DNA of 64,000 nt from Hydrogenophaga sp. Its GTDB lineage: Bacteria > Pseudomonadota > Gammaproteobacteria > Burkholderiales > Burkholderiaceae_C. Position 1 is the first letter of the stretch. Every line of letters starts with the position of its first letter. A program made the position numbers and the translations under genes. Location: the NCBI RefSeq assembly GCF_030373225.1, contig NZ_JAUCZG010000007.1, positions 15,807 to 79,806 of the forward strand. The letters run 5' to 3'. The notes beneath the pieces are model-generated. The model was not told where the DNA came from and searched no databases. It worked only from the letters and a program-made list of their open reading frames with translations. Shown piece after piece: positions 12,239-58,836 of this stretch.

Positions 12239-12898
12239 ATGTTCAAAGTTGTTGTTGCAGAAGACCACGCGCTGGTCCGCCAGGGCATCAGCATGCTGCT
12301 GTCGACCACGGGCGGCTTCGAACTGGTCGCCGAAACCGCGCTGGGCAGCGAGGTCGACATCCTTGTCGGGTTCCACAAACCCGATCTGCTGCTGCTCGAC
12401 CTGGCCCTGAGCGACAGCTCGGGCATTGAAGTGGCCCGGAAGGTGAAGAAGATCGCCCCCGCCACCAAGGTGCTGATCGTCACCGGCAACGTGTATCCGG
12501 GCTCGGTGGCCAATGCCTTCGCTGCCGGCGCAGACGGCTTTGTGCTCAAGCACGAACAGGGCTCCGAACTGCTGGACGCCATCCAGGCGGTGCTGGCGGG
12601 CCGCCGCTATGTGAGTCCGCAGGTGGCCAAGGGCCTGGACAACTCGTCCAACGCTCGCGTTGCCAACCACGGCATGTCACAGACATTGACCCAGCGAGAG
12701 CAGCAAATCGTTCGCATGATTGCCAAGGGCGGCAGCAACCAGGAGATCGCAGACGCCTTGCACATCAGCGTGCTCACCGCGCGCAAGCACCGGCAGAACG
12801 TGATGCTCAAACTGGACCTCCACAACGGCGCGGAGATCGCCGCTTACGCCATCCAGTCGGGGCTGGCCGAAGCCCCCGACATCGACAGCAACCTGTAG
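12239..12898 (+). CDS. NarL/LuxR-family response regulator
   Basis: Receiver domain (MFKVVVAEDHALVRQG...LLLLDLALSD) plus a C-terminal LuxR HTH (LTQREQQIVRMIAKGGSNQEIADALHISVLTARKHRQNVMLKL). Confidence 0.9.
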   Translation: MFKVVVAEDHALVRQGISMLLSTTGGFELVAETALGSEVDILVGFHKPDLLLLDLALSDSSGIEVARKVKKIAPATKVLIVTGNVYPGSVANAFAAGADGFVLKHEQGSELLDAIQAVLAGRRYVSPQVAKGLDNSSNARVANHGMSQTLTQREQQIVRMIAKGGSNQEIADALHISVLTARKHRQNVMLKLDLHNGAEIAAYAIQSGLAEAPDIDSNL

Positions 12899-13085
12899 AG
12901 CAACTCGCCGGCCGGCGAAGCCGCCTGCGCCCTGCTCAGGTACCGGTAGGGGTTGCGAAACCCGCGTTGTTTCTCAAAATAGTGCTCATGCATTATTGGG
13001 GGTAGGGGTATCCGGACGGGATACTTCGTCCCATGGTGAACGCATCTTCGGTCACCTGGCCAACACCAGAGAAACGGGGCAGACC

Positions 13086-13499
13086 ATGGGAATGAACGCA
13101 CTGGCGCTGGGTGTCTTCAAGCACCTGAGCCGCAAAAGCGAGGAGAAGATGCAACACGATGAAGACGTCGATTCCAGAATCTCGCCGGCGTCGATTTCGG
13201 ACGACTACCAGGTGCTGGTCACGGAATGCTTTCAGGCCCTGGGCCTGGACGCAGGTCAGATCCGCATCGTGGTGCGGTCGGTCGGTTGGACGCCAGGCGG
13301 CCTGGAAATCTACGCCGCCTTCATCAAGGTGATTCACTGGGACGTTCGCGTCGTGGAGATGCTCAGCAACATGCCGGTGATCGAAAAGAAGATCGATCGG
13401 CGCGTGCGGCAGAGCTCCATGCTGCGCTACAGCGCCTTTGCGGGTCTGTGGTTTCGTTCACCGGCCGGTGTCAACCGAGCCGTCGCCACGGTGCACTGA
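13086..13499 (+). CDS. hypothetical protein
   Basis: ORF 12996..13499. The ATG pair at 13086/13092 follows a lower-G+C intergenic stretch. No family recognised. Confidence 0.4.
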   Translation: MGMNALALGVFKHLSRKSEEKMQHDEDVDSRISPASISDDYQVLVTECFQALGLDAGQIRIVVRSVGWTPGGLEIYAAFIKVIHWDVRVVEMLSNMPVIEKKIDRRVRQSSMLRYSAFAGLWFRSPAGVNRAVATVH

Positions 13500-13657
13500 G
13501 CTGTGGGCGGTCAGCCGCCCACCCGCAGCTCTGGCGCTCAAGCTTCCATTTCGGCGCCCGCCACCCAAGGCAAAAGAAACGACCAGGGCCTTGTCGCGCG
13601 GCGACAAGGCCCTGCTTCATGGGTTCACCAAGGGGCCGCGCGCCTCGCTCGTTGCAC

Positions 13658-14617
13658 TCAGTGCCAGGCCGGGGGCTGGACCCATCCGAAACGCCGGGGC
13701 AAGCACCCCGCGAGGGCATAGAGCCAATGGGTGGCCGCCATTCTGCGCGCCTGCCGCTCCAGCACGACATGCAGGCACTGGCGTTCCTCAACAATCGCCT
13801 CGCTGAGGTCGATGGCACATCGGGAGCCAAAACGGAATGCCGCCTCTGCGGTGCGCCGCAAGGAGCGGGCCCGCACGTACCGGGCGTGCTGCCGATCCAG
13901 ATCGAGCACCGTTTGCAGATACGCCTCCCGGGCCGCCGAAAAGTCCGCGACGGCCTGGATTCGGGCCTGCACCATGGCGTCAAGGGCCTGGCCACACACC
14001 TGCGAGGCACCGGTGCGCTGCTCGCTCCGGTCGCCCGCCCGCTGAAGACCGGGATGCGGGCCAGCGTGCACCCACAGGCAGGCCTTGGCCAGCCGGTCCA
14101 TTTCGTCTTCGGCAATCGGGCCCGGTGCATCGACCAAGGGCTCGAGTTGTGCGGGCAACAAACGGGTCTGGCGGGTGAACCGCTGGCCGACTTGTCTCCA
14201 TTCGGTCATGGCCTCAAACACCTTGTCGTCCCCGGCGGCCAACAGCGCCGAAACCCGAAGCACTTCCAGAGAGCCGGCCTGCCCTGCGTCTGCGCGCGCA
14301 ACCAGCATCTCGAGCACAGTCTGCAACTCACGCTGTGTGCAGAAAGCGTTCTGCAGCTGGAGTCGCGCGGTATCGAGCTGGAGGCAGGTGTCCAGTGCGG
14401 CAGCGAGGTGGTCGTTGATGCGCCGCTGGGTCGGCGGGTCGTTCGCCATGAGTGCGCCGTGCAACCCTGCGCTGCCGATCTCGCCATCAAGGGTCAGAAG
14501 ATGGCGCAGAACCGCGGCCAGTGGCATGGGCTGGTGGGCCGATGCAGCCTGCGGCTGCGTTTGCAACCGTGGGCCCCCGGGGCCAGGTTGCCTGGCCGGC
14601 GCATCGCGCTCCGTCAT
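13658..14617 (-). CDS. hypothetical protein with weak TolC/OEP-like C-terminal repeat and no signal peptide
   Basis: The ATG at 14617 is preceded by GGGAGGA. The C-terminal segment RSLRRTAEAAFRFGSRCAIDLSEAIVEERQ...ATHWLYALAG resembles the last helical repeat of outer-membrane efflux proteins. The N-terminus is Pro/Gln-rich and is not a signal peptide. Confidence 0.45.
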   Translation of the reverse strand: MTERDAPARQPGPGGPRLQTQPQAASAHQPMPLAAVLRHLLTLDGEIGSAGLHGALMANDPPTQRRINDHLAAALDTCLQLDTARLQLQNAFCTQRELQTVLEMLVARADAGQAGSLEVLRVSALLAAGDDKVFEAMTEWRQVGQRFTRQTRLLPAQLEPLVDAPGPIAEDEMDRLAKACLWVHAGPHPGLQRAGDRSEQRTGASQVCGQALDAMVQARIQAVADFSAAREAYLQTVLDLDRQHARYVRARSLRRTAEAAFRFGSRCAIDLSEAIVEERQCLHVVLERQARRMAATHWLYALAGCLPRRFGWVQPPAWH

Positions 14618-14762
14618 GTCCGGTTCCTCCCGTTTGAATGCTGTGGCCAGCAGTCTCCCGGGGGTGGATTGGCGTCTCAATAACGCTCGCGCAGTATTTT
14701 GGAGGCAGGGTGTCGCCGACGTCACGGAAGCCTCATGGATTTTTTCGAAGCACGGGGCTACG

Positions 14763-17063
14763 ATGGCCGACGCCAGCTCCGCCATCCAAGGAAGACGCCT
14801 GAATCCCATGCGAAACCCGGACTCGATTCCCTGGGATCAACTCCCGGGTCTGTCGGCGGCGTTGGGAACGGGCGCTGCATTGCTGGGTGTCTCGAACGAC
14901 CTGCTGGAAGTCCTTCGCAGAAGGGGCGAACCGGAACACTGGTGCGCCTGGTTGACCGAGTCGTCACGTCGCGAGTTGCTCGACCAACTCGGCCGCCACG
15001 AGAACTTTCAGATCACGCTGCAGCTGGGCGAGAACACAGGCCCGGATTCGGCGCTGCCTCCCCTGTGGTTGGCGTGCGATGGTCACTGGATGCCGGACAC
15101 GGCTTGTCACTTCTGCCACTTCGCCGACGCCACGTCCATCGAACAGGCTCGCGTCGACGCGCAAACGCTGATCGAACGCATCCGTCTGATCTTCAAACAC
15201 CTGCCGGTCATGGTCGCCCACTTCGGCCCGCCACCGCATGGCCTCTGTGAGTTCGCCAACCAGCCGTTTGCCGAGCTGTTCGGGCACAGCGAGCAATCGA
15301 TCATCGGCGTGCCTTCCCTCGATCGCATCTTCGAGGGCGCGCGAGGCACCCTGGCGCCGTTCCTGCGCGAGGCGCTCATGCAACGCGCACCCGTGACATT
15401 CCCCTTCGGACTCCACTCCGCGAAAGGACACCGGGTCCAGCTTGAAGTGACGGTCATCCCCTGGCAGAGTTCGGCGGCGGCCGATGACGGCCAGGGGTTT
15501 TCCTTCCTGATCACCGACATCACCGAACGGCACAAGGCAGAGCTCGCGCGGCGGGAGTCGGAAGACCGCTTGTCACGCTTCATGAATGCCAGTGAAGAGG
15601 GCGTGCTGTTTCACCGCGATGGCCTGATCACCGATGCGAACCCGGCTGCGAGCCTGCTGCTTGAAACACCCCTGCACGAGTTGCTGGGGCGCCCGGTGCT
15701 GGAGCTGATTGCGCCGGAGTTCCGTGCCCGTGCCTCGCACGCCATGGCCTCGGGCGCGGACGCCTCCCACGAGAGCGAGATCTTCAACCGCCACGGCCAG
15801 CGCATTCCGGTGGAGATCATCGGGCGCTCCATGATGCGCAACGGCGAGCGCCTGCGCATGGCCGTCGTGCGCGACATCCGCGACCGCCGCGAAGCCCAGG
15901 CCCGCATCCACGAACTCATCGAGGGCCTGCGCTCCGAGAAAGACAGGGCCGAGGCCGCCGACCGCGCCAAGTCCGTCTTCCTGGCCGCCGCCAGCCACGA
16001 CCTGCGCCAACCCATCCACGCCCTCAGCCTCTTCCTCACCGCCCTGCGCTCCATGTCCCAGGCCCCCCGCTTGCGCAGCGCCGACCTCGCCGAACTGTGC
16101 CAGCGCATGCAGGCCTCCCTGGACGGCCTGGGCCAGTTGCTCAACATGCTGCTGGACGTCTCCCGCCTGGACGCCAACGCCGTGCAGGTCGAGCCAGCGC
16201 CCACCAGCGCGCAGCGCCTGCTCGAAGAGCTCGATCAGGACTTCCACCAGATCGCCGGCGACAAGGGCCTGCAGCTGCACGTGGCCAGCTCCCGCCTGTG
16301 GGTCGACACCGACCCCACCGTGCTGCGCCGCATACTCACCAACCTGGTCTCCAACGCCGTGCGCTACACCTCCCGCGGGCGCGTGCTCATCGGCTGTCGC
16401 CCGCGCGGCCACGAGGTCGAGTTCCAGGTCTGGGACAGCGGCATCGGCATCCCCACCGCGCAGCGCGAGGCCATCTTCGAGGAGTTCTTCCAGATCGGCC
16501 AGACCACCGCTGCGCGCCACGAGTCCCACGGCCTGGGCCTGGGCCTGTCCATCGTCAAACGCTCCGCCCTGCTGCTGCACGCCACCCTCAACCTGCGCTC
16601 CACCCCGGGCCGCGGCTCCATGTTCAGCATCCGCGTCCCTCGCTGCCCTCCGCCACCACACAGCGCCGCAACCGCGAAGGAGCCCGCGTTCGCACGGTCT
16701 GCCGCCCGCCTCGGTGTGCTGGTGATCGACGACGACCAGCAGGTGCTCGCCGCCATGCGCAGCGTGCTCGGCGTCTGGGGGCACCGGGTCTTCTGCGCCA
16801 CCTCCCCCGACGAGGCCGTCGTCATGGCCATCAGCCACGCCAACGACATCGACCTGCTCATCTCCGACTACCGACTGGGCGGCAACGTCACCGCCATCGA
16901 CACCATCCACGCCGTGCACGCCTGCCTGCCCTGTCCCGTCCCCACCTACATCTTCACCGGTGACACCTCCCCCCAGCGCATCCACGAAGCCGCCGAACTC
17001 GGCTTCCCGCTGCTGCACAAACCCATCGACGCGCGCGCCCTGCGCTCCATCCTGGAGCAGTGA
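14763..17063 (+). CDS. PAS-domain hybrid sensor histidine kinase/response regulator
   Basis: PAS regions, the HisKA H-box FLAAASHDLRQPIH, HATPase N/G boxes (NLVSNAVRYT, DSGIGIP, GLGLGLSIV) and a C-terminal receiver (VLVIDDD...LLISDYRL...HKP). The start could instead be the ATG at 14808. Confidence 0.9.
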   Translation: MADASSAIQGRRLNPMRNPDSIPWDQLPGLSAALGTGAALLGVSNDLLEVLRRRGEPEHWCAWLTESSRRELLDQLGRHENFQITLQLGENTGPDSALPPLWLACDGHWMPDTACHFCHFADATSIEQARVDAQTLIERIRLIFKHLPVMVAHFGPPPHGLCEFANQPFAELFGHSEQSIIGVPSLDRIFEGARGTLAPFLREALMQRAPVTFPFGLHSAKGHRVQLEVTVIPWQSSAAADDGQGFSFLITDITERHKAELARRESEDRLSRFMNASEEGVLFHRDGLITDANPAASLLLETPLHELLGRPVLELIAPEFRARASHAMASGADASHESEIFNRHGQRIPVEIIGRSMMRNGERLRMAVVRDIRDRREAQARIHELIEGLRSEKDRAEAADRAKSVFLAAASHDLRQPIHALSLFLTALRSMSQAPRLRSADLAELCQRMQASLDGLGQLLNMLLDVSRLDANAVQVEPAPTSAQRLLEELDQDFHQIAGDKGLQLHVASSRLWVDTDPTVLRRILTNLVSNAVRYTSRGRVLIGCRPRGHEVEFQVWDSGIGIPTAQREAIFEEFFQIGQTTAARHESHGLGLGLSIVKRSALLLHATLNLRSTPGRGSMFSIRVPRCPPPPHSAATAKEPAFARSAARLGVLVIDDDQQVLAAMRSVLGVWGHRVFCATSPDEAVVMAISHANDIDLLISDYRLGGNVTAIDTIHAVHACLPCPVPTYIFTGDTSPQRIHEAAELGFPLLHKPIDARALRSILEQ
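15679..16646 (+). repeat. 968-bp direct repeat, copy 1 (inside kinase gene 1)
   Basis: Compared block by block with 17949-18916 (offset 2270 bp) and no mismatch seen. The flanks differ at 15678/17948 and 16647/18917. Confidence 0.9.
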
Positions 17064-17071
17064 AAAACGGC

Positions 17072-18955
17072 ATGGAACACGCTCCCGGCCCGAACCACCC
17101 CAAGCCCGAACCGGCACAGCCGTGGTGGCAGCACCTGCCGGGTCTGGTGCTTGTGATCACCGAGCAAGGGCGGCCGCTCTACGCCAGCCCGGCACTCACG
17201 TCGTTGCACGAAGCCCATGCCCTGGACGGCGACTGCATCACGGCCCTCACACCCGGATCGGGCCAGGCACTGCACGACCGGCTCAGCCGCCGCGCCGACT
17301 TCCAGCTGGAACTGCAATGGTCCACGCGCCGATCGGAAACGCCGGTCCGGTGGTTTTCGTGTTCGGCCAGATGGCAGGCCGATGCGAGGCAGTACCTCTG
17401 CCTGTGGGTCGACATCACCGCCTGCGCGCGGGCGCGGGAGGAGACCGGCGCCAGGGCCGCGTTTCTGCGCAACTTCTGCAATGCCATCCCGGTCATGGTG
17501 GCGCACTACAGCCATCCGTTTCGCTGCGAGTACGCCAACCGGCACTATGCGGCCCTGTATGGGCACAACGAGCAATCCATCCTGGGGCTGACCGTGGGCG
17601 AATTGCCCCGGATCGACCCCGACGACAGGATGCCGACGCGGGAGCTGGCGCTCCCGGAGCGCAGCCTGGTGACGTATGAACAGTCGTTGGTCGATCCGAA
17701 AAGCGGGCTCCAATGGCTCGAGGTCACCGTGGTGCCCTTTTTTGACGACAGCGGCAGCACGCCGGGCGGGGCCATCCTGAACCAGTTCATCACGCAACGG
17801 CGGCGCGCAGAGATCGCTTCGCGCGAATCGGAAAACCGCCTGGCGGCGTTCATGCAGGCGAGTGCGGAGGGCGTGATCTTCCATGTCGACGGGGTGATCA
17901 CCGACGCCAACCCGGCGGCCTGCCACCTGTACGACGGTGCCATGGACAAGTTGCTGGGGCGCCCGGTGCTGGAGCTGATTGCGCCGGAGTTCCGTGCCCG
18001 TGCCTCGCACGCCATGGCCTCGGGCGCGGACGCCTCCCACGAGAGCGAGATCTTCAACCGCCACGGCCAGCGCATTCCGGTGGAGATCATCGGGCGCTCC
18101 ATGATGCGCAACGGCGAGCGCCTGCGCATGGCCGTCGTGCGCGACATCCGCGACCGCCGCGAAGCCCAGGCCCGCATCCACGAACTCATCGAGGGCCTGC
18201 GCTCCGAGAAAGACAGGGCCGAGGCCGCCGACCGCGCCAAGTCCGTCTTCCTGGCCGCCGCCAGCCACGACCTGCGCCAACCCATCCACGCCCTCAGCCT
18301 CTTCCTCACCGCCCTGCGCTCCATGTCCCAGGCCCCCCGCTTGCGCAGCGCCGACCTCGCCGAACTGTGCCAGCGCATGCAGGCCTCCCTGGACGGCCTG
18401 GGCCAGTTGCTCAACATGCTGCTGGACGTCTCCCGCCTGGACGCCAACGCCGTGCAGGTCGAGCCAGCGCCCACCAGCGCGCAGCGCCTGCTCGAAGAGC
18501 TCGATCAGGACTTCCACCAGATCGCCGGCGACAAGGGCCTGCAGCTGCACGTGGCCAGCTCCCGCCTGTGGGTCGACACCGACCCCACCGTGCTGCGCCG
18601 CATACTCACCAACCTGGTCTCCAACGCCGTGCGCTACACCTCCCGCGGGCGCGTGCTCATCGGCTGTCGCCCGCGCGGCCACGAGGTCGAGTTCCAGGTC
18701 TGGGACAGCGGCATCGGCATCCCCACCGCGCAGCGCGAGGCCATCTTCGAGGAGTTCTTCCAGATCGGCCAGACCACCGCTGCGCGCCACGAGTCCCACG
18801 GCCTGGGCCTGGGCCTGTCCATCGTCAAACGCTCCGCCCTGCTGCTGCACGCCACCCTCAACCTGCGCTCCACCCCGGGCCGCGGCTCCATGTTCAGCAT
18901 CCGCGTCCCTCGCTGCTCTCCGCCCACCGACACCGCCTCGGCCCGGCTGGCATGA
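17072..18955 (+). CDS. PAS-domain sensor histidine kinase (no receiver domain)
   Basis: Paralog of the upstream kinase with the same H-box and ATPase motifs. It ends 13 codons after the ATPase domain. The track start at 17060 is a GTG overlapping the upstream stop; the first ATG is at 17072. Confidence 0.88.
   Translation: MEHAPGPNHPKPEPAQPWWQHLPGLVLVITEQGRPLYASPALTSLHEAHALDGDCITALTPGSGQALHDRLSRRADFQLELQWSTRRSETPVRWFSCSARWQADARQYLCLWVDITACARAREETGARAAFLRNFCNAIPVMVAHYSHPFRCEYANRHYAALYGHNEQSILGLTVGELPRIDPDDRMPTRELALPERSLVTYEQSLVDPKSGLQWLEVTVVPFFDDSGSTPGGAILNQFITQRRRAEIASRESENRLAAFMQASAEGVIFHVDGVITDANPAACHLYDGAMDKLLGRPVLELIAPEFRARASHAMASGADASHESEIFNRHGQRIPVEIIGRSMMRNGERLRMAVVRDIRDRREAQARIHELIEGLRSEKDRAEAADRAKSVFLAAASHDLRQPIHALSLFLTALRSMSQAPRLRSADLAELCQRMQASLDGLGQLLNMLLDVSRLDANAVQVEPAPTSAQRLLEELDQDFHQIAGDKGLQLHVASSRLWVDTDPTVLRRILTNLVSNAVRYTSRGRVLIGCRPRGHEVEFQVWDSGIGIPTAQREAIFEEFFQIGQTTAARHESHGLGLGLSIVKRSALLLHATLNLRSTPGRGSMFSIRVPRCSPPTDTASARLA
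17949..18916 (+). repeat. 968-bp direct repeat, copy 2 (inside kinase gene 2)
   Basis: Identical by eye to 15679-16646. Confidence 0.9.
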
Positions 18956-18980
18956 TGTCGGGCTTTGCTCGACCGCCCGA

Positions 18981-19751
18981 ATGCAGGAAACCATGAACCC
19001 GAACGCCCCCGAACCCACCGACGCTGCAGCCACGGCACCCACCGAATCCGGCACCGGAAACCCGCCACCGGCACGCAGCGGGCGCAACCGTCGCGGCCCC
19101 GCGCCACAGCGCGCGCCGCACAACGGTGCCAACCCGGGCGCGGGGACACCGCCCCAGCGGCACCACCCCATGCTCGACCAGCTCGCGCAGTCCTATCCGG
19201 CCTTGTTCGGCGAGGTGTTCCGGCCTCTGAAGCGCGGCATCTTCCAGGACCTGCTCGAGGCGCAACCCGAAGTGTTCGACAAGGACGGCCTGAAAACCGC
19301 GCTGGCGCTGCACACGCGATCGACCCGCTACCTCACTGCGGTGGCCAGTGGCCAGCCCCGCTGCGACCTGAGCGGTCAACCGGTGGAAGATCTCGCGCCC
19401 GAGCACGTGCACCACGCGCTGGTGGAGGTGTTTCGCCGCCGCCAGGGCCGCGCGCCGCAAGACCTGCGACCCAAGCTGCGCCAACGCATCGAGCAGGCGT
19501 TCGAAGCCTCCGGCCTGGGCGCCGAGGCCTACGCCGCGCTGGTCCAGACGCGCGACGAGGCCTTGAACACCTTGACCCAGGAGGCACTGGACGCGGTGGT
19601 GAGCCGGGCCGCCAGGGACGCGGCGCTGCTGCGCGCGTTCGAAGCCAGCGGCAAGACGGTCGAGGCGTTCGCCGACATGTACGGCATGGGCGTGGCGGAT
19701 GCGAACCGCACGCTGGAGCGGGCGCGTTCGCGCGCGGTCAAGCCCGCCTGA
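18981..19751 (+). CDS. ProQ/FinO family RNA-binding protein
   Basis: A Pro/Arg-rich N-terminus is followed by LAQSYPALFGEVFRPLKRGIFQDL...LKTALALHTRSTRYLTAVASGQPRCDLSG, matching the ProQ/FinO domain pattern. Confidence 0.7.
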   Translation: MQETMNPNAPEPTDAAATAPTESGTGNPPPARSGRNRRGPAPQRAPHNGANPGAGTPPQRHHPMLDQLAQSYPALFGEVFRPLKRGIFQDLLEAQPEVFDKDGLKTALALHTRSTRYLTAVASGQPRCDLSGQPVEDLAPEHVHHALVEVFRRRQGRAPQDLRPKLRQRIEQAFEASGLGAEAYAALVQTRDEALNTLTQEALDAVVSRAARDAALLRAFEASGKTVEAFADMYGMGVADANRTLERARSRAVKPA

Positions 19752-19766
19752 GTTCGGTCGGCAGCT

Positions 19767-21071
19767 TCAGGCCGCCGGCATCGTGAAGACGGTGAGCACG
19801 CCGGTGTAGCCGTAGAGCCGGTGGTGGGCAATCTCGCCGCCCGCGAAAAAACCCACCAGAGGCACATCGCCGAGCGCTCTGCGCACCAGCTGCAGTTCGG
19901 CACTCGGGCTGCCGAAGTGCGGGCCGCCGCGACCGGCGCAACTCACGTAAATGGCGCCTGCGATGCGCCGCGCCGGGTGGGGCGCGGCGTCTGCCTCGGC
20001 GGCGGTCAGGGCGCTGGCCATCGCGAAGTTGAGCTCTTCGGGCTCGAGCTCCTCCCGCACCTCGGAGCACACGCGGATCAGGTCGGCCCGCGCGGCCTGC
20101 ACGTTGCGCTCGCAAAACGCCATGCGTGTGCCCTCGGGCGCGAGGTCGCCAATGGCCACACCGCGGCGGCCCGGGTCCAGGCCGATCAGGTGACGCACCA
20201 TCACCTCGGCGCCGAACTGCCCGCGCAGGTGCGGCCCGCTGGCCGGCAGCTCGACATCGACGTCGGGATGCGGCAGCGTCAGGCCCACCAGCGTGGCGCG
20301 CAGACGCGGCATGGCCAGATCGGGCTGCTCCAGCGAAATGTCGAGCTCGCGCAGCAGCACGTCGAGTGCGGGTTCACCGTCGAGTTCGAGCACCAGGTTG
20401 CCATCGGACGCGGTGACGGTGCGCTCGCGGTCGACCGGCTGGGCTCCCTGCGTGACCCGCGAGACGATTCCCACATCGGGCCCGAAAGCCACGCCACTGA
20501 GGCCGCCATGGAACACGCCGCCGGCCGCGCCCTGCCCACGCAGGTTGCCCGCGCTGCCAAGCGAGAACTGGACGCTCTGGCCACGGCTGCCCGCCAGGCC
20601 GCCGAACACGTAGCCACTGACGGTGCGCTCGGCCACTTCGGCGATCAGCTCGTTGAGCTCCGGCGTGCCGCCATCGGCATGCACCAGCGCGGTATGGGCC
20701 ACGAAGCCGCTGGTGCCGGCACGGCCGCTGGCCGACAGCGGCGCCACCCCGCTGAACACGCGGTACTGGTCGGGGCTGAGGTCGCACAGCATCACGCACA
20801 GAGCGGGTTCGTCGAAATACTCCACGTTGTTGGCCGACACCCCCACTCCCACGGTGCCGGCCCAGTCGGTCACCTCGGGCAGTTCAGCGCTGAGGTGTTC
20901 CAGGATGGCCTGGGCTTCGGCGGCGTAGTGGTCGGTGATGTAGAGCAGCGCCAGCGAGGGCGCCCTGGCGTGGTCGGGCAAGGCCATCTGGCCGCGCAAT
21001 TGCGCCAGCACCAGCGCGGCGGCCATGCGCCATTGCGGATGGGTGGCGTGAGCGTAGGGAAAGAGTTTCAT
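19767..21071 (-). CDS. FIST N/C domain-containing signal-transduction protein
   Basis: 434 aa with N- and C-terminal regions resembling FIST_N/FIST_C (the C-terminal end reads PLVGFFAGGEIAHHRLYGYTGVLTVF). No output domain. Confidence 0.6.
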   Translation of the reverse strand: MKLFPYAHATHPQWRMAAALVLAQLRGQMALPDHARAPSLALLYITDHYAAEAQAILEHLSAELPEVTDWAGTVGVGVSANNVEYFDEPALCVMLCDLSPDQYRVFSGVAPLSASGRAGTSGFVAHTALVHADGGTPELNELIAEVAERTVSGYVFGGLAGSRGQSVQFSLGSAGNLRGQGAAGGVFHGGLSGVAFGPDVGIVSRVTQGAQPVDRERTVTASDGNLVLELDGEPALDVLLRELDISLEQPDLAMPRLRATLVGLTLPHPDVDVELPASGPHLRGQFGAEVMVRHLIGLDPGRRGVAIGDLAPEGTRMAFCERNVQAARADLIRVCSEVREELEPEELNFAMASALTAAEADAAPHPARRIAGAIYVSCAGRGGPHFGSPSAELQLVRRALGDVPLVGFFAGGEIAHHRLYGYTGVLTVFTMPAA

Positions 21072-21101
21072 CGGAGGTCGACCCGCCAGCGGCGCGAGGG
21101 T

Positions 21102-22235
21102 TCAACGCCTGCGCGGCGAAGCGGCGGCAGACTTGCGGGCAGCGGGTTTGCGGGGTGTGGCTTTCTTCGCTGCGGTTTTTTTCACCGCGGCCTTCTTCGC
21201 GCCGGCCTTGCCAGCGCTGGTTTTCTTCGCCGCCGATGTGCCCGGCGCGGGTTGTGCCCCGGGCTGCAGCGCGGCAAAGCCCGGGAAGAAAGCCGTGGGC
21301 AGGGTCCAGTCACCGGCCGCCATGGGCTGGGCCGCCGGCGCACGGTCACTCGATCGGGTGCTGGCGGCGCGGGTCGGCGCCTTTTTTGCGGCGGGCCCAG
21401 GCGCGGCTTTCCGGCGGGGCGCCGTCACCGCCCGCGCCGCTGCGCGGCCCATGCCGGCGGCCGTGCCCACGTTGCGGGCCACCGAGCCGCCGATGCTGCG
21501 CGCCGCCTTGCCGGCCATGCCGGTGGCGGTCTTCATGGCCTGGTCGGTGAGGCCGGTCGCCACCTGGCGTGTGGTGTCGAGAGCGGTCTGTTTGGCCACG
21601 TCCTTCATGGCATTGCTGGCGATCTGCTGGAACTGCTGCGAGATCGCGCCCCACCATTGCATGGGGTCGACCACACCGCCCGCTGCCGCCGGCGATGCTG
21701 CACCCGCCTTGCGCGGCGTGCGTCTGCGCACCGGCTGTGCAGCCTCCTCGGGCATGTCGTCGGACGCTTCTTCCTCTTCGGGATCAGGCTCGGGCTCGGG
21801 CATGCTGCCGTAGGTGCGGGCGGGAATCTCGAGCCCGGCAAACTGCGGGGCCGGCGCAGGTGATGCGGTGCCGGTGAAACCGGCCAGCGTGTCGGCCGCC
21901 TTGATCTTGAGCGCATTGGCCACGTCGCCCATGCTGAAGTTCATGCTCTTGAGGGTGGACAGCGTCATTTTCTGCACCTCCAGCGCCTGGATGGTGGCAC
22001 CCAGGGCCTTGGAGTTCTGGTCCAGCCAGAAATGCACCGCCTTGAGTTCCTCGATGCGCTTCTCGAGGTCTTCGACATTGAAGGTGGGCGCCACCCAGTG
22101 CCCGAGGTTGGGCATCTGCGGGATGTTCTGACCGATGCCCTGCACCACACCCCCGGCGGCCTGGCCAGCGAGGTTTTGCAGGAACTCGAAACCGGGCACG
22201 AACTTGCCGAAACCGCTGCTGGGCGCGTCGCTCAT
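21102..22235 (-). CDS. PhaM-like polyhydroxyalkanoate granule regulatory protein
   Basis: N-terminal FGKFVPGFEFLQNL...WVAPTFNVEDLEKRIEELKAVHFWLDQNSKALGATIQALEVQKMTL, plus a histone-H1-like Ala/Lys/Pro C-terminal tail (AKKTSAGKAGAKKAAVKKTAAKKATPRKP). Confidence 0.6.
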   Translation of the reverse strand: MSDAPSSGFGKFVPGFEFLQNLAGQAAGGVVQGIGQNIPQMPNLGHWVAPTFNVEDLEKRIEELKAVHFWLDQNSKALGATIQALEVQKMTLSTLKSMNFSMGDVANALKIKAADTLAGFTGTASPAPAPQFAGLEIPARTYGSMPEPEPDPEEEEASDDMPEEAAQPVRRRTPRKAGAASPAAAGGVVDPMQWWGAISQQFQQIASNAMKDVAKQTALDTTRQVATGLTDQAMKTATGMAGKAARSIGGSVARNVGTAAGMGRAAARAVTAPRRKAAPGPAAKKAPTRAASTRSSDRAPAAQPMAAGDWTLPTAFFPGFAALQPGAQPAPGTSAAKKTSAGKAGAKKAAVKKTAAKKATPRKPAARKSAAASPRRR

Positions 22236-34380: not shown

Positions 34381-34510
34381 TCAGCCCCGGCGCAGCGGGG
34401 GAGCGTGGGGGCAAAAGGCCCCGGGCCAGCCGCAGGGCCGCCCCAAGGCGGGCCCAGCCCCCTCGGGGGGCAGCGACCCTCGCGCAGCGGGGGAGCGTGG
34501 GGGCTCCCCC
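34381..34510 (+). repeat. REP-like intergenic repeat, family B, copy 1 (composite)
   Basis: Core ...aaggcgggcccagccccctcggggggcagcgaccctcgcgcagcgggggagcgtgggggc, plus an extra upstream copy of the cgcagcgggggagcgtggggg module. Related copies at 46498-46573 and, inverted, at 57479-57600. Confidence 0.8.
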
Positions 34511-46483: not shown

Positions 46484-46497
46484 CCGCGACGGGCACG

Positions 46498-46573
46498 CCG
46501 CCGGGCCGCTCCCAAGGCGGGCCCAGCCCCCTCGGGGGGCAGCGGACCTCGCGCGGCGGGGGAGCGTGGGGGC
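46498..46573 (+). repeat. REP-like intergenic repeat, family B, copy 2
   Basis: ccgccgggccgctcccaaggcgggcccagccccctcggggggcagcggacctcgcgcggcgggggagcgtgggggc is near-identical to the 34435-34504 core. Confidence 0.8.
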
Positions 46574-46579
46574 TTGTTG

Positions 46580-51692: not shown

Positions 51693-53246
51693 TCAAGCGG
51701 AAGGCGACATGCAGCGTCGGCGCTTCTCTTCGTACTCATCCCTTTTCACCGCGTGGCTTTCGTACCGGCGATTTTCCTCTCGTCGATATGCCTCGTGGGC
51801 GGCATCCCATGCGAGGATTTCGGGCGTGTTCAACACGGGCCCGAGGCCTATCCACTGATAAGGCTCGCGCCAGTGATGCCTTTCATATTGATTCCAAAGA
51901 CCGTCAATGCCGGAATAAAACGAGATGACAGGGCGGAAAGCGAAAGATATGTTGTGTGACGAGAAGTTGAGGGTTGTCAAACTCACCACAGTGCCGACGG
52001 GCGCATCACGGAAAAGACCCAATTCGTCCGGTTGAGATGACCCTGCAAGTAAAACAGCGCCCATGAACATCCTTTCATAAGTGCACTCCTTTTGATGCAA
52101 CGTCCCAGGACTCTCCGGGTAAGGGTGGTCGTCCCATTCACACGTCTGATAGCCACCCATCCCCGGGCCCAGAATGCGCCAGGTTTCCGAGTACTTTTGC
52201 GGGTATTGAACAGGTTCCTTGAACCATCCAGACGTGGTTTTGACAAAGACTTGGGGAACGGTGGTTTCATATACGACCTTGTCAACGCGGTGTGAGGCGA
52301 CACTCGGTCCAAGCCTCTCCATAGGCCTGAACCCTCCCAACCAGGGGTTTGAGATGAGATCCGGGTACGGCGGCATCGGCTTGCGGGGTGCGGCGTCGAG
52401 TTCGTGCAAGGCGGCCACCACATCATCGCGAATCCTCCCGGCCGTCGACAGCGCCGGATTGAGATAGATCTCGAGCAGCCCGTGCCCGATCAGATCGCGC
52501 GAACCGTTGAGCCCGGCGGGGCGGTGCACATAGCCCGGAATCAGGTCTGTGATGGCGGCCACGGTGCCGGTCAGCCTCAGTGCATTGATGACACTGTCCT
52601 TGTCCGCCAGGGTGTGCCGGCCCGACAGGGTGGGGGAAGCCGGCGCCACATGGACCACCCGCACATGCTCGTTGCCGGTGCGGCCCACAGCGTGCGTGCG
52701 GGCCTGGTTCACAAACAGGTTGCCCTGGGAGTGCGCCAGGAACAGCATCTTGCGATTCAAACCGGCCCAGCGGTCGATCTGTTCCTTGTGCCTGGCCGAC
52801 ACGCTGGCCATGCCGGGCTCACCCACACCCGATATCAGCCCCTTGACGGCGGCCGTGGTGTACGCGTCGAAGAAAGACCCGAGCAAGGCCGCCAACGACG
52901 GGATGGCAGAAGTCAGCGCATTCCACCATCCGCCTTCACCCTGCGTGGCCGAAAAAAACAACTCGAACCGGCCAGCCAGCAGACCGTTCTGCTCCTGCAG
53001 CCGCTGCTCGAAGGTCTCCACAAAATCCGTGAAACCCTGGGTGTCGTTGTAGAAGAGTTCGTAGGTGATGGGTTCGCCGGCGGGGGTGGTGGGGCCGTAG
53101 AGGTCCTCCAGCTTGCGCCTGGCTTCGTTCGCTTGCGACACTGTCGTTCGAACACCGTTAAAGAATCCGAATACAGCACCGCTGCCTTCACACTGCTCCT
53201 GCCCCAAGGCGGGGATGGGCAGCAGCAGTGTGACGGACAAGATCAT
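51693..53246 (-). CDS. secreted alpha/beta-hydrolase-like protein (AHSQG nucleophile-elbow motif) with uncharacterised C-terminal domain
   Basis: The start at ATG 53246 was chosen by alignment with the paralog fragment: a signal-peptide-like MILSVTLLLPIPALG. Also LFLAHSQGN (a GxSxG-type motif) and a possible His in DLIGHGLLEIY. The last roughly 220 aa are Trp/Tyr/Pro-rich with no family recognised. G+C is visibly lower than in the flanks. Confidence 0.55.
   Translation of the reverse strand: MILSVTLLLPIPALGQEQCEGSGAVFGFFNGVRTTVSQANEARRKLEDLYGPTTPAGEPITYELFYNDTQGFTDFVETFEQRLQEQNGLLAGRFELFFSATQGEGGWWNALTSAIPSLAALLGSFFDAYTTAAVKGLISGVGEPGMASVSARHKEQIDRWAGLNRKMLFLAHSQGNLFVNQARTHAVGRTGNEHVRVVHVAPASPTLSGRHTLADKDSVINALRLTGTVAAITDLIPGYVHRPAGLNGSRDLIGHGLLEIYLNPALSTAGRIRDDVVAALHELDAAPRKPMPPYPDLISNPWLGGFRPMERLGPSVASHRVDKVVYETTVPQVFVKTTSGWFKEPVQYPQKYSETWRILGPGMGGYQTCEWDDHPYPESPGTLHQKECTYERMFMGAVLLAGSSQPDELGLFRDAPVGTVVSLTTLNFSSHNISFAFRPVISFYSGIDGLWNQYERHHWREPYQWIGLGPVLNTPEILAWDAAHEAYRREENRRYESHAVKRDEYEEKRRRCMSPSA
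52937..53102 (-). repeat. 166-bp exact repeat, copy 1 (inside the full-length hydrolase gene)
   Basis: Identical by eye to 54045-54210 (offset 1108 bp). Confidence 0.85.
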
Positions 53247-53277
53247 GCTCACTGGATTGCAAAGGAGGAGCACCTTT

Positions 53278-53817
53278 TCAATCACAGCCATTCCCCTTGA
53301 ATGAACCAGAAACCGATCCGCTGGCTGCACGGTTAAATTCTAGGTAGCTCGTTAGGCGTCTTCTGCTGTTCGTGGTTATGGCTTCCAACTCTCGAGACAT
53401 TTGAGATCCGCGCGCGAATGCATCGATATCCACGAAGGTGTCAAAAATGCAGTCAACTGCCTTGGAACTGATACGAACCACCTCTTCCACTGCAAGTGAA
53501 TCCCGCTTGTCCACCAACAGCATCTGTTGGTACGCCCGCGCCATCTGCATCGCCGCCGCTCTCTCCGCCGGCACGGTGTACTTCCTCTCGATGTGCTGCT
53601 CGATGTCGTCCCGAACGCCGTTCGCATTCGCATCGGTCCCCGCGATGCTGTCGCCGCGCTCCAGCGTAGGCAGCACGCCGCTGGCTTCGAGCCGGGCAAC
53701 CTGTTCTTGCGGAGTGAGCACCGGCCCCGCGTCTGCGGCCTTGCCTCCGCCACCACAGGCCGTCACGGCAAAAGCGAGCGCCAACCCGCACACACGGATT
53801 CCCTTCACTTCTTTCAT
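53278..53817 (-). CDS. lipoprotein, unknown function (paralog 1)
   Basis: The ATG at 53817 follows GGGAGGAG. Lipobox-like FAVTAC followed by GGGG. Two conserved Cys in the C-terminal half. No family recognised. Confidence 0.6.
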   Translation of the reverse strand: MKEVKGIRVCGLALAFAVTACGGGGKAADAGPVLTPQEQVARLEASGVLPTLERGDSIAGTDANANGVRDDIEQHIERKYTVPAERAAAMQMARAYQQMLLVDKRDSLAVEEVVRISSKAVDCIFDTFVDIDAFARGSQMSRELEAITTNSRRRLTSYLEFNRAASGSVSGSFKGNGCD

Positions 53818-53940
53818 GGTGTCTCCTCCCTGAATCGATGGTTCGCCTGGCTTCAACACGGGTGGCGTTGAACAGCCGGCGCTCGGCAGTATCGAATCAA
53901 AGAACCCCACCATGGACACTGGGGGAGGTACAGAAATCGC
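53506..53940 (-). repeat. about 435-bp near-identical repeat, copy 1 (5' half of the lipoprotein gene plus about 120 bp upstream)
   Basis: Matches 54623-55057 (offset 1117 bp). The 264 bp at 53637-53900 have no mismatch by eye, and mismatches accumulate toward the 3' side of the gene. Confidence 0.85.
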
Positions 53941-54012
53941 ATCTTTTTTGCAAAGACCAGATCGGGATGGGGACCCATGCTCGCCGATCGGTCTGGCTGT
54001 CGACAGGCGCCC

Positions 54013-54366
54013 TCAACTCCGTCGATGGTCGCGTGCAACCTTCACACCCTGCGTGGCCGAAAAAAACAACTCGAACCGGCCAGCCAGCAGACCGTTCTGC
54101 TCCTGCAGCCGCTGCTCGAAGGTCTCCACAAAATCCGTGAAACCCTGGGTGTCGTTGTAGAAGAGTTCGTAGGTGATGGGTTCGCCGGCGGGGGTGGTGG
54201 GGCCGTAGAGAATTTCCAGATGATCGAAGGCCGTTTGCTTGGCTTGTTGCTCTGTGGTTTTCACACCGTTGAAGAATCCAAACACCACTCCTGCGAAGCA
54301 GCTTTCTTCAGCTGCAGCGCAGATCGGAAGCAGCGCCAGGACCAAGGCCAAGGCCAGCCTTCTCAT
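54013..54366 (-). pseudogene. truncated paralog of the AHSQG hydrolase gene (N-terminal about 110 codons only)
   Basis: Encodes MRRLALALVLALLPICAAA...VVFGFFNGV...LYGPTTPAGEPITYELFYNDTQGFTDFVETFEQRLQEQNGLLAGRFELFFSATQG, then 10 unrelated codons and a stop. It lacks the AHSQG region entirely. Confidence 0.7.
54045..54210 (-). repeat. 166-bp exact repeat, copy 2 (inside the truncated hydrolase paralog)
   Basis: Identical by eye to 52937-53102. Identity stops exactly where the truncated ORF leaves homology. Confidence 0.85.
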
Positions 54367-54394
54367 TGCGGCAGCGGGCGCGGTGCGCATGTGT

Positions 54395-54934
54395 TCATTC
54401 ACAGCTGCCTCCCTTTGGCATCGTGGAAACCGTTCCGCTTCGTGCCTTGTTGTATTCAAGGTAAGCAAGGAGGCGCGCTTTGGTGTTGGTGGTCATGGAC
54501 TCAAGCTCTGCACTCATCCGCGACCGATCCAACAAACCGTCGACAGCAACGAAGGCCGATCTGGCGCAAACAATCGCCAGCGAGCCCGCTTCAGAAGCTG
54601 CATCCAATGCCACTGCATCGCTCTTGTCCACCAGCAGCATCCGCTGGTACGCCCGCGCCGTCTGCATCGCCGCCGCCCTCTCCGCAACCACGGTGTACTT
54701 CTTCTCGATGTGCTGCTCGATGTCGTCCCGCACGCCGTTCGCATTCGCATCGATCCCCGCGATGCTGTCGCCGCGCTCCAGCGTAGGCAGCACGCCGCTG
54801 GCTTCGAGCCGGGCAACCTGTTCTTGCGGAGTGAGCACCGGCCCCGCGTCTGCGGCCTTGCCTCCGCCACCACAGGCCGTCACGGCAAAAGCGAGCGCCA
54901 ACCCGCACACACGGATTCCCTTCACTTCTTTCAT
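54395..54934 (-). CDS. lipoprotein, unknown function (paralog 2)
   Basis: The ATG at 54934 has the same RBS as paralog 1. The first 60 residues are identical to paralog 1, with 6 differences in the first 105. The C-terminal 75 residues are strongly diverged but alignable, with both Cys conserved. Confidence 0.6.
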   Translation of the reverse strand: MKEVKGIRVCGLALAFAVTACGGGGKAADAGPVLTPQEQVARLEASGVLPTLERGDSIAGIDANANGVRDDIEQHIEKKYTVVAERAAAMQTARAYQRMLLVDKSDAVALDAASEAGSLAIVCARSAFVAVDGLLDRSRMSAELESMTTNTKARLLAYLEYNKARSGTVSTMPKGGSCE

Positions 54935-55057
54935 GGTGTCTCCTCCCTGAATCGATGGTTCGCCTGGCTTCAACACGGGTGGCGTTGAACAGCCGGCGCT
55001 CGGCAGTATCGAATCAAGGAACCCCACCATGGACACTGGGGGAGGTACAGAAATACG
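54623..55057 (-). repeat. about 435-bp near-identical repeat, copy 2
   Basis: See 53506-53940. Confidence 0.85.
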
Positions 55058-55146
55058 CAGAAGCTGTTTTATGTGATCGAGTGGCGCATGTGTTGACAGG
55101 CGCACAGGCCTTCGCACAATGGCTCAACCCCCCACCTGGAGTCACC

Positions 55147-57618: not shown

Positions 57619-58755
57619 ATGGAACGCGACCAGGCATCCAAATTCGTCAACGACCTGCTGCGCCTGATGCTCAGCCGCGGTGGCAGCGACCTTTTCCTCA
57701 CCGCCGAGTTTCCGCCCGCCATCAAGGTCGACGGCTCGGTGGTCAAGGTGTCGCCGCAACCGCTCAACGCCTCGCACACCCTGGCGCTGGCGCGCGCCAT
57801 CATGAACGACAAGCAGGCCGCCGAGTTCGAGCGCACCAAGGAGTGCAACTTCGCCATTTCGCCACCGGCCATTGGCCGCTTCCGCGTGAGCGCATTCATC
57901 CAGCAAGGCAAGGTCGGCATGGTGATGCGGACCATTCCCGCCGTGCTGCCCACCATCGACAAACTGGGCCTGCCCCAGGTGCTCAAGGATGTGGTCCTGT
58001 CCAAGCGTGGCCTGTGCATCCTGGTGGGTGCCACCGGCTCCGGCAAGTCCACTTCGCTGGCGGCCATGGTCGACTGGCGCAACGAAAACACGCACGGCCA
58101 CATCATCACCATCGAGGACCCGGTGGAGTTCGTGCACCCGCACAAGAACTGCGTGGTGACGCAACGCGAAGTGGGGCTGGACACCGAGAGCTGGGAAGCC
58201 GCGCTGAAGAACACGCTGAGGCAGGCCCCCGATGTCATCCTGATGGGCGAGATCCGGGACCGCGAAACCATGGAGCATGCGATCCAGTTCAGCGAGACAG
58301 GTCACCTGTGCCTGGCCACCCTGCACGCCAACAGCGCCAACCAGGCGCTGGACCGCATCATCAACTTCTTCCCTGAAGAGCGCAGAGCCCAGTTGCTGAT
58401 GGACCTCTCGCTGAACCTGCGCGCCCTGGTGTCGCAACGACTGATTCCACGCCAGGACAACAAGGGTCGCCACGCAGCGGTGGAGATCATGCTGAACTCG
58501 CCACTGATCTCCGATCTGATCTTCAAGGGCGATGTCGCCGAGATCAAGGAGATCATGAAGAAGAGCAACCAGATGGGCATGCAGACGTTTGACCAGGCGC
58601 TCTTCAATGCCTTCGAGGCCAACCTCATCACCTTCGAGGATGCCCTGCGCAACGCAGATTCGCTCAACGATCTGCGCCTTCAGATCAAGCTCAACAGCCA
58701 GCGCGCCAAAACCCTGGATCTGGCTGCGGGCACCGAGCACCTTACCATTGTGTAA
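57619..58755 (+). CDS. pilU: PilT/PilU family type IVa pilus ATPase (PilU)
   Basis: DLFLTAEFPPAIKVDG, Walker A GATGSGKST, and its position directly downstream of pilT. Confidence 0.88.
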   Translation: MERDQASKFVNDLLRLMLSRGGSDLFLTAEFPPAIKVDGSVVKVSPQPLNASHTLALARAIMNDKQAAEFERTKECNFAISPPAIGRFRVSAFIQQGKVGMVMRTIPAVLPTIDKLGLPQVLKDVVLSKRGLCILVGATGSGKSTSLAAMVDWRNENTHGHIITIEDPVEFVHPHKNCVVTQREVGLDTESWEAALKNTLRQAPDVILMGEIRDRETMEHAIQFSETGHLCLATLHANSANQALDRIINFFPEERRAQLLMDLSLNLRALVSQRLIPRQDNKGRHAAVEIMLNSPLISDLIFKGDVAEIKEIMKKSNQMGMQTFDQALFNAFEANLITFEDALRNADSLNDLRLQIKLNSQRAKTLDLAAGTEHLTIV

Positions 58756-58756
58756 T

Positions 58757-58836
58757 CCCCGCGCCGCGCCTGCGGCGCGTCACCCCCGAGGGGGCAATGC
58801 CTGCGGCCTGGCGGAGCCGGTTCTGCGGCATTCCTG
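58757..58836 (+). repeat. REP-like intergenic repeat, family A, copy 2
   Basis: tccccgcgccgcgcctgcggcgcgtcacccccgagggggcaatgcctgcggcctggcggagccggttctgcggcattcctg starts 1 nt after the pilU stop. Confidence 0.8.

Follow-up and report, generated by a model that had tools for sequence, protein, structure and literature searches.

Two adjacent, co-oriented PAS histidine kinase genes, here designated HK1 and HK2, were analysed in a 64,000-nucleotide (nt) stretch of contig NZ_JAUCZG010000007.1 of Hydrogenophaga sp. (hereafter the window). The two genes differ strongly in their sensor regions and share an exact direct repeat of 968 nt that covers most of the second PAS domain and the whole transmitter module. 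Very probably, they represent an old tandem pair of hybrid kinases whose 3′ module has been homogenised by recurrent gene conversion, with HK2 of the window having additionally lost its receiver through a deletion. The pattern carries the marks of concerted evolution, namely paralogs that are more alike than orthologs within the tract, homogenised synonymous sites, an old phylogeny preserved in the flanks and variable tract end points.

The repeated tract and the kinase genes

Both copies of the repeat lie in frame, inside two abutting genes of PAS-PAS-HisKA-HATPase architecture. The features concerned are as follows.

14808..17063 (or from 14763), + strand: HK1, hybrid histidine kinase (Pfam domains; orthologues of 744-776 amino acids (aa))
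16716..17054, + strand: receiver of HK1 (Pfam Response_reg), with the acid pocket DDD, the Asp in LLISDYRL, the Thr and the Lys all present
17060..18955 (or from 17072), + strand: HK2, paralogous kinase with a diverged sensor and the domains of HK1 without the receiver
15502..15678, + strand: stretch of intermediate similarity preceding copy A, in the N-terminal part of the second PAS domain (partner 17772-17948)
15679..16646, + strand: repeat copy A, exact run, spanning HisKA, HATPase_c and two-thirds (the C-terminal part) of the second PAS domain in HK1
17949..18916, + strand: repeat copy B, exact run, the same 968 nt within HK2

The original prediction, made from the sequence without database searches, had matched 15679-16646 with 17949-18916, and base-by-base comparison at an offset of 2270 found the two segments to form a single unbroken exact run of 968 nt in direct orientation. 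Scattered mismatches like those of the flanks, one of the observations that would have refuted the prediction, were found nowhere within the 968 nt. The self-comparison of the whole window by BLAST, which had been proposed as a check, showed the tract to be the longest repeat of the 64-kb window and to be present only twice; a 968-nt exact repeat rules out chance as its source. Identity was 100% in every 30-nt block of the tract, 57-77% over about 180 nt upstream, and at background level further out and downstream. None of the 143 four-fold degenerate sites differed between copies A and B. In HK1, the first residue of the tract is 308, which belongs to the second PAS domain (PAS fold 271-371, PAS_9 282-375), and the last is 630, one residue past the HATPase_c match (519-629), in keeping with the earlier statement that identity stops within one codon of the end of the ATPase domain. 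Over the 56 codons upstream of the tract, HK1 and HK2 were 66% identical at the nucleotide level and 57% at the amino acid level; the two-thirds identity previously claimed for about 55 residues holds for the DNA and not for the protein. The remaining sensor was, as anticipated, far more diverged, with identities of 47% (nt) and 30% (aa). The upstream zone still groups by paralog type, HK1 of the window being 82% identical to HK1 and 68% identical to HK2 of L001, a Hydrogenophaga metagenome-assembled genome, and the upstream gradient may owe as much to a conserved PAS core as to earlier conversion events.

HK1 probably starts at ATG 14808, giving a protein of 751 aa, in line with orthologues of 750 aa; an alternative ATG is found at 14763. 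The orthologues of 744-776 aa are those of L001, L004, L005, L007, L008, L009 and L092, all described below. The order of domains in HK1 is an N-terminal region of unknown fold, PAS_4, PAS/PAS_9, HisKA (residues 405-473), HATPase_c, a Pro/Ala-rich linker and a receiver (Response_reg, residues 654-766), the last having been correctly foreseen. The sequence contains the motifs SHDLRQP, NLVSNAVRYT, DSGIGI, GLGLGL and LLISDYRL, and HK1 possesses the H-box histidine, the N and G boxes and the receiver with its phospho-acceptor Asp that define a hybrid histidine kinase of the HisKA class. HK2 starts either at GTG 17060, overlapping the HK1 stop codon (TGA, 17061-17063), or at ATG 17072, 8 nt past that stop. 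Since the stop of HK1 overlaps or abuts the start of HK2, the two genes form one operon. HK2 of the window lacks a receiver and ends 12 codons after HATPase_c. The original prediction had given 13 unrelated codons, which proved incorrect in both respects, the first nine of the 12 being an in-frame homologue of the linker. The counterparts of HK2 in the pair-bearing relatives carry a receiver in 7/7 cases, and HK2 of the window is thus secondarily non-hybrid. Its protein was unique in a collection of 5.8 billion proteins, the nearest orthologues (72-74% identical, 749-752 aa) all having a receiver. The unique sensor of HK2 spans 292 codons without a frameshift or stop, and its amino acid distances to the orthologous sensors were 0.45 for L001 and 0.52 for L007, compared with 0.49 and 0.52, respectively, for the sensor of HK1. 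When HK1 was scored against NCBIfam, the best models were NF041832 (334.9 bits, cut-off 400) and NF041831 (289.6 bits, cut-off 1500). Membership of the kinases in the NahK/ErcS family was rejected on these curated cut-offs, although the transmitter (with the kinase core) and the receiver are most like those models. Other members of that family are associated with NosP or ErdR; neither was present at this locus, the neighbouring response regulator reaching 59 bits against a cut-off of 390 for ErdR.

Homogenised kinase pairs across Hydrogenophaga

The closest relatives of the window were found to be Hydrogenophaga (Burkholderiales) genomes and metagenome-assembled genomes. In 8/8 Hydrogenophaga genomes with a kinase pair at the ssb-proQ locus, a set that includes the window and two complete chromosomes, the paralogs were 99.6-100% identical in a 3′ tract, with the following lengths.

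Window: tract of 968 nt, 0 mismatches
L001, Hydrogenophaga metagenome-assembled genome: tract of 1372 nt, 2 mismatches
L004, strain BPS33, complete chromosome CP044549.1: tract of 1483 nt, 6 mismatches
L005, JGI contig, the kinase being also recorded on a 4.48-Mb metagenome contig: tract of 1224 nt, 0 mismatches
L007, JGI contig of 389 kb: tract of 1417 nt, 3 mismatches
L008, strain T2: tract of 1168 nt, 4 mismatches
L009, JGI contig of 188 kb: tract of 1275 nt, 1 mismatch
L092, strain SNF1, complete chromosome CP139793.1: tract of 1278 nt, 0 mismatches

In the relatives, the tract begins inside the second PAS domain, takes in HisKA, HATPase_c, linker and receiver, and finishes no more than a few codons before the stop, and the sensors of the paralogs share 33-66% of their nucleotides. 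The nucleotide distance between transmitters was 0-0.006 within genomes and 0.067-0.265 between genomes. Similarly, the difference at four-fold sites was 0-0.022 within and 0.09-0.42 between genomes, with 10-34% of these sites differing between the transmitter of the window and those of the other genomes. The homogenisation of synonymous sites excludes protein-level selection as the cause of the identity. The four-fold sites of the sensor paralogs, in turn, were saturated (0.26-0.71). In neighbour-joining trees, the sensors formed separate HK1 and HK2 clades, whereas the transmitters placed the two copies of each genome together (8/8 pairs). The internal branching of the two sensor clades was broadly alike, as judged by eye, and on the evidence of these trees the clades are older than the species splits. 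Compared with L001 and L007, its closest relatives, the window differed by 45-52% of amino acids in the sensors and by 10-11.5% in the core of the kinases. That old paralogs had undergone gene conversion, and were not a fresh duplication, had been put forward in the original prediction and agrees with both the trees and the four-fold sites. The comparison of orthologous loci, also recommended there, bore out conversion and spoke against a strain-specific event, all eight pairs compared across the genus being homogenised.

The left boundary of the tract fell at alignment columns of about 281, 318, 323, 325, 340, 357 and 382, always within the second PAS domain. Such variation between genomes indicates that there is no fixed site and that independent events end where homology runs out; combined with the divergence between genomes, it excludes a single inherited event. 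Site-specific or programmed recombination was also considered and rejected, the boundaries differing among genomes and the locus containing no recombinase; no recombinase or transposase was found flanking the tract. The Pro/Ala-rich linker between HATPase_c and the receiver (16647-16715; alignment columns of about 641-664) was hypervariable between genomes, with flanking domains that were 86-97% identical (L001 versus L002), and was identical between paralogs within every pair genome except the window.

The course of events that very probably underlies these observations begins with ancient tandem paralogs, encoding cytoplasmic PAS-PAS hybrid kinases and conserved across Hydrogenophaga. The 3′ part of both genes would have been overwritten repeatedly by intrachromosomal homologous recombination, in the form of non-reciprocal conversion between direct repeats. 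The part affected would be the interior of the second PAS domain, HisKA with its dimerisation and histidine phosphotransfer (DHp) helices, the ATPase domain and, in the relatives, also the receiver, so that each genome would have two identical copies of a module that differs from one genome to the next. At the sensors, conversion would be halted by their divergence (about 47% nt identity), and probably also by selection for distinct sensors. The same repeats would cause pop-out deletions that leave a single kinase with sensor 1. In the window, a deletion reaching from the HK2 receiver through to the proQ leader cut the homology to 968 nt, which subsequent conversion would have kept identical while the 27 nt of linker left beside it drifted.

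Receiver loss, single-kinase genomes and rival explanations

The sequence between copy B and the downstream gene proQ was resolved into the following elements.

18917..18943, + strand: HK2 linker stub (SPPTDTASA, 27 nt), in-frame homologue of the hypervariable post-ATPase linker, from a codon alignment
18938..18943, no strand: deletion junction, a short G+C-rich overlap between the linker stub and the ProQ upstream element
18939..18980, + strand: conserved ProQ upstream element, aligned to L001 and L002 and now holding the HK2 stop (18953-18955); found in L001 at about 15925-15967 and in L002 at about 15153-15195
18981..19751, + strand: ProQ/FinO-family gene (Pfam; synteny), conserved downstream neighbour of the kinase pair

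Positions 18939-18980 align with the intergenic DNA lying directly upstream of proQ in L001 and L002, and the codons of HK2 past the linker stub, including the stop, fall in this element. The approximately 42 nt before proQ (GGCTGGCATGATGTCGGGCTTTGCTCGACCGCC...AGGAAACC ATG) were almost invariant among genomes, though the ProQ protein itself was only 82-86% identical, and may constitute a regulatory leader or promoter element. The linker stub shares 18/27 nt with the linker of L001 and likewise 18/27 nt (67%) with the window's own HK1 linker. The linkers of L001 and L002 were also identical at 18 of 27 positions in the codon rows, with flanking kinase-core and receiver blocks at 86-97%. The 33% divergence of the stub from the HK1 linker suggests that the deletion predates the last conversion. 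With the receiver deleted, homology in the window effectively ends with the ATPase domain, which explains why the identical tract goes no further. HK2 and proQ are separated in some clades by an MFS/acyltransferase gene, which may be accompanied by a helix-turn-helix (HTH) gene. The intervening genes of L001 and L002 had no match anywhere in the window, and, judging from this comparison, the deletion probably also took the MFS/acyltransferase gene, with or without its neighbours. A metagenome scan with the HK2 sensor retrieved no relative, and a scan with ProQ retrieved 80 loci, none above 86% identity, with a related kinase upstream only in L013, in single copy. A distant transmitter match was observed in L057, on the opposite strand and downstream of ProQ.

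Only one kinase was present at the same position in L002, in its close relative L013 and in L091 (strain PBC, complete chromosome CP017311.1). These genomes carry an HK1-type sensor in 3/3 cases, have pair-bearing sisters (L001 for L002 and L013, L092 for L091) and represent at least two independent lineages. Recombination between the tandem repeats drops sensor 2 and keeps sensor 1, which matches the sensor type retained. Some contig ends also fit a repeat. The independent metagenome contig L010 seems to derive from the strain of L001, with proteins of 97-100% identity in the neighbourhood. Its first base is 98 nt ahead of the stop codon of the kinase, close to the 3′ edge of the repeat, as would suit an assembly break at a genuine repeat. 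Another contig, L003 (1631 nt), contains little beyond sensor 2. In L094, an ENA contig of 3.2x coverage, an HK1-type kinase (405-2660) was split at the linker into a 629-aa kinase and a 115-aa receiver open reading frame, a split that probably reflects a frameshift in the linker or a sequencing error there; of the following kinase gene, the contig contains only the first 321 codons, breaking off close to where the repeat is expected to start.

A related tandem kinase pair was detected at another locus in some Hydrogenophaga, namely in L090 (6001-10526) and L093 (6001-10531), flanked by Fe-ADH and GntR genes upstream and by a CesT-like gene and an unknown gene of 613-631 aa downstream, with no regulator nearby. 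Its transmitters were only 47-82% identical in nucleotides, without a segment of at least 95% identity, and served as a negative control: the divergence of this pair shows that a tandem layout alone does not guarantee homogenisation. Of the two kinases at this locus, the first was nearer to the homogenised module, both in the core (amino acid distances of 0.376 vs 0.447) and in the receiver (0.473 vs 0.607). This tentatively points to the HK1-type module as the original donor, the assignment of sensor types at the second locus being near saturation. Within the second PAS domain, no direction of donation could be read by comparison with genomes whose boundary lies further to the right, the stretch being short and diverged.

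The other origins considered for the identical tract differ in what they make of its exactness. An assembly or polishing artefact, in which the two transmitters were merged into a single consensus or the assembly made two genes out of one, draws on the difficulty of assembling exact kilobase repeats and on a 139-kb source contig for which there is no conspecific sequence elsewhere. It is nevertheless very improbable, since the same structure occurs in seven other independent assemblies, two of them complete chromosomes, and several of these retain 1-6 scattered mismatches, so that the copies were resolved separately. The sensors of the two window genes, moreover, are unrelated and their 3′ ends differ, orthologues of each gene are found elsewhere, and the break of L010 near the edge of the repeat is the behaviour expected of a real repeat. 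Identity imposed by purifying selection on the protein would agree with the stronger conservation, between species, of the transmitter than of any other part, as would a mobile or horizontally acquired cassette inserted twice. Both are scarcely credible. Synonymous sites are identical too (0/143 four-fold sites in the window vs 10-34% to other genomes), and a cassette is contradicted by the occurrence of the tract only twice in the window, by the lack of a flanking recombinase or transposase and by a phylogeny that follows the host genomes. Additionally, megablast of positions 13000-20000 against 72,556 plasmids returned only H-box matches of 40-76 nt in Azospirillum, Cupriavidus and Ralstonia. 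The identity and the receiver loss might also have arisen together in a single strain-specific event, a break in HK2 having been repaired by copying the HK1 transmitter, with an illegitimate join on the right. In favour of such an event, only 22-27 nt separate the right edge of the tract from the deletion junction, and the left edge falls within homologous PAS sequence. Even so, it is improbable: the 27 nt between tract end and junction are HK2's own linker and not that of HK1, which makes the two ends separate; 7/7 other pairs were homogenised without a deletion, and no special event is needed; and the divergence of the stub of the hypervariable linker suggests a deletion older than the last conversion.

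A further possibility accepts the same evolution and holds that HK2 of the window is decaying after the loss of its receiver, its 3′ half being kept intact-looking by conversion. The receiver is present in HK2 of all seven relatives and absent only from the window, and conversion acts regardless of function. This is less easily dismissed and yet rather unlikely, because HK2 has an intact 292-codon sensor, whose distance from its orthologues does not exceed that of the HK1 sensor, the divergence of the linker stub suggests that the truncated gene has persisted for some time, and receiver-less kinases are a normal architecture. Some considerations weigh against recurrent conversion followed by deletion, the explanation preferred here. 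The recombination is read from the pattern in present-day sequences, and the contig of the window and its HK2 protein are unique in the databases, with no conspecific by which to date the deletion or the last conversion. The perfect identity of the window, as opposed to about 99%, could in principle partly reflect consensus polishing of its assembly, and conversion could make a non-functional HK2 transmitter look intact.

Signalling, known systems and the surrounding genes

In HisKA kinases, the specificity of phosphotransfer and of dimerisation resides in the DHp helices. HisKA and HATPase_c lie wholly inside the 968-nt tract, with 0 differences between HK1 and HK2. On this basis, the two kinases would be expected to have the same phosphotransfer specificity, HK1-HK2 heterodimers should be possible, there being no bar in the dimer interface, and translational adjacency would favour their co-production. 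The pair would then constitute two fast-evolving inputs to one output. The receiver-less HK2 would probably pass its phosphate to the receiver of HK1 in trans or directly to a regulator. The candidate for this output and the genes between it and the kinases are as follows.

12239..12898, + strand: NarL/FixJ-type response regulator of 219 aa (Pfam Response_reg and GerE), candidate output regulator
13086..13499, + strand: conserved small protein of 137 aa (tblastn with the L007 and L004 proteins; no Pfam match)
13658..14809, − strand: conserved protein of unknown function (homology over 13697-14557), between the regulator and the kinase operon

The NarL-type regulator is a candidate for the output on account of its synteny, being present in 11/11 related genomes that hold the ssb-proQ locus. 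It reached no equivalog cut-off, the best model being PRK15369 (147 bits vs 242). The conserved chromosomal order of the locus was uvrA (− strand), MFS, CLC (− strand), ssb, the NarL-type regulator, the small protein (about 119-158 aa across relatives), the minus-strand unknown gene, HK1, HK2, proQ and FIST (− strand). A terminator-like hairpin at 13584-13614, with a 14-bp stem containing 10 G-C pairs, is located between the convergent small (+) and unknown (−) genes and parts the transcription unit of the regulator from the kinase operon. This arrangement counts against the assignment of the regulator, as two genes and the hairpin, which is a strong one, intervene before the kinases; no histidine phosphotransfer (Hpt) protein was identified in the locus, and the pair at the second locus has no adjacent regulator. 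The two small genes between regulator and kinases matched no Pfam or NCBIfam model and included no Hpt candidate. Scans of the window for tRNA genes and Rfam families returned nothing.

The persistence of the pair, though its repeats favour deletion and deletions were seen, suggests selection for retaining sensor 2. Whether the identity is itself selected, and not a neutral by-product of the tandem arrangement, is a more tentative matter. Under this doubtful, though conceivable, proposal, the pair would form one signalling node that integrates two fast-evolving sensors, through heterodimers or a shared receiver, Hpt and regulator partner, and conversion would prevent the usual insulation of DHp specificity after duplication, in Hydrogenophaga species with transmitters that differ from each other at 9-42% of four-fold sites. 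The persistence of the pair despite its deletion-prone kilobase repeats fits such selection, as does the escape of the related second-locus pair into divergence. If the proposal is true, the strain of the window is a natural variant in which one input has no receiver and signals via the other kinase or directly to the regulator.

Several known systems resemble the pair in part. The tufA/tufB genes and the rRNA operons are the classical cases of bacterial concerted evolution by gene conversion, which is thought to be RecA-dependent and non-reciprocal. As in those cases, the paralogs within a genome are closer to each other than the orthologs between genomes, synonymous sites included; unlike them, where whole genes with one function are homogenised, only the 3′ output module is affected here, with the boundary inside a PAS domain. 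Many-to-one signalling networks include LuxN, LuxQ and CqsS acting on LuxU in Vibrio, NahK, SagS and PA1611 acting on HptB in Pseudomonas aeruginosa, and KinA-E acting on Spo0F in Bacillus. The kinase pair would share with these the convergence of different sensors on one phosphotransfer partner; the transmitters of those networks are diverged and converge in function, whereas here convergence would be enforced by identity of the DNA. According to the insulation model of Capra and Laub, the DHp specificity residues of duplicated kinases reportedly diverge, avoiding cross-talk. The opposite was found for HK1 and HK2, whose DHp helices are kept identical to each other across the genus, while the L090/L093 pair behaves as the model expects. 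The closest described analogue is provided by Tlp2, Tlp3 and Tlp4 of Campylobacter jejuni, which have ligand-binding domains of about 30% identity and identical signalling domains (PMC9769880). The tree of their signalling domains follows the species tree and that of their sensory domains groups by paralog (PMC9769880). Both cases concern paralogous bacterial sensors with a diverged sensing part and an identical signalling part. The Tlp proteins, however, are methyl-accepting chemotaxis proteins that feed a shared array, where identity poses no specificity problem; here, the DHp helices and the receiver, which set specificity, are homogenised in genes that are translationally adjacent in tandem. 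Gene conversion as a mechanism is thus well known and the split between sensor and output has a precedent in the Campylobacter chemoreceptors; full-text literature searches returned no earlier description of histidine kinase transmitters undergoing gene conversion or evolving in concert. The pair offers a clean natural counter-example to the rapid divergence of specificity in duplicated kinases, a well-bounded system for studying the end points of conversion tracts and the rates of conversion versus deletion between tandem repeats, and a candidate natural two-input kinase node for heterodimer signalling. Kilobase repeats of this kind may also break short-read assemblies, as the contig ends described above fit, and be mistaken for artefacts.

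Downstream of proQ, and elsewhere in the window, additional features were recorded.

19767-21071, − strand: FIST-domain gene
21102-22235, − strand: Ala/Pro/Lys-rich protein of 377 aa

The plus-strand open reading frames 13226-14683 (485 aa) and 19821-21863 (680 aa) were rejected as genes, being spurious high-G+C artefacts. A second tandem duplication was found at 52937-55059, with units of about 1.1 kb that are 81% identical over 1028 nt. Within it, 52937-53102 equals 54045-54210 (100% over 166 nt) and 53486-53941 matches 54603-55059 at 95.8% over 457 nt. The genes concerned are likely minus-strand paralogs at about 53281-54012 and 54398-55123, which are 72% identical in amino acids and have no Pfam match; the patchy identity suggests that gene conversion may have acted there too. 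Short dispersed repeats of 85 and 79 nt, 91-92% identical, were observed at 34422-34505 / 46490-46574 and at 1026-1104 / 58751-58828, respectively.

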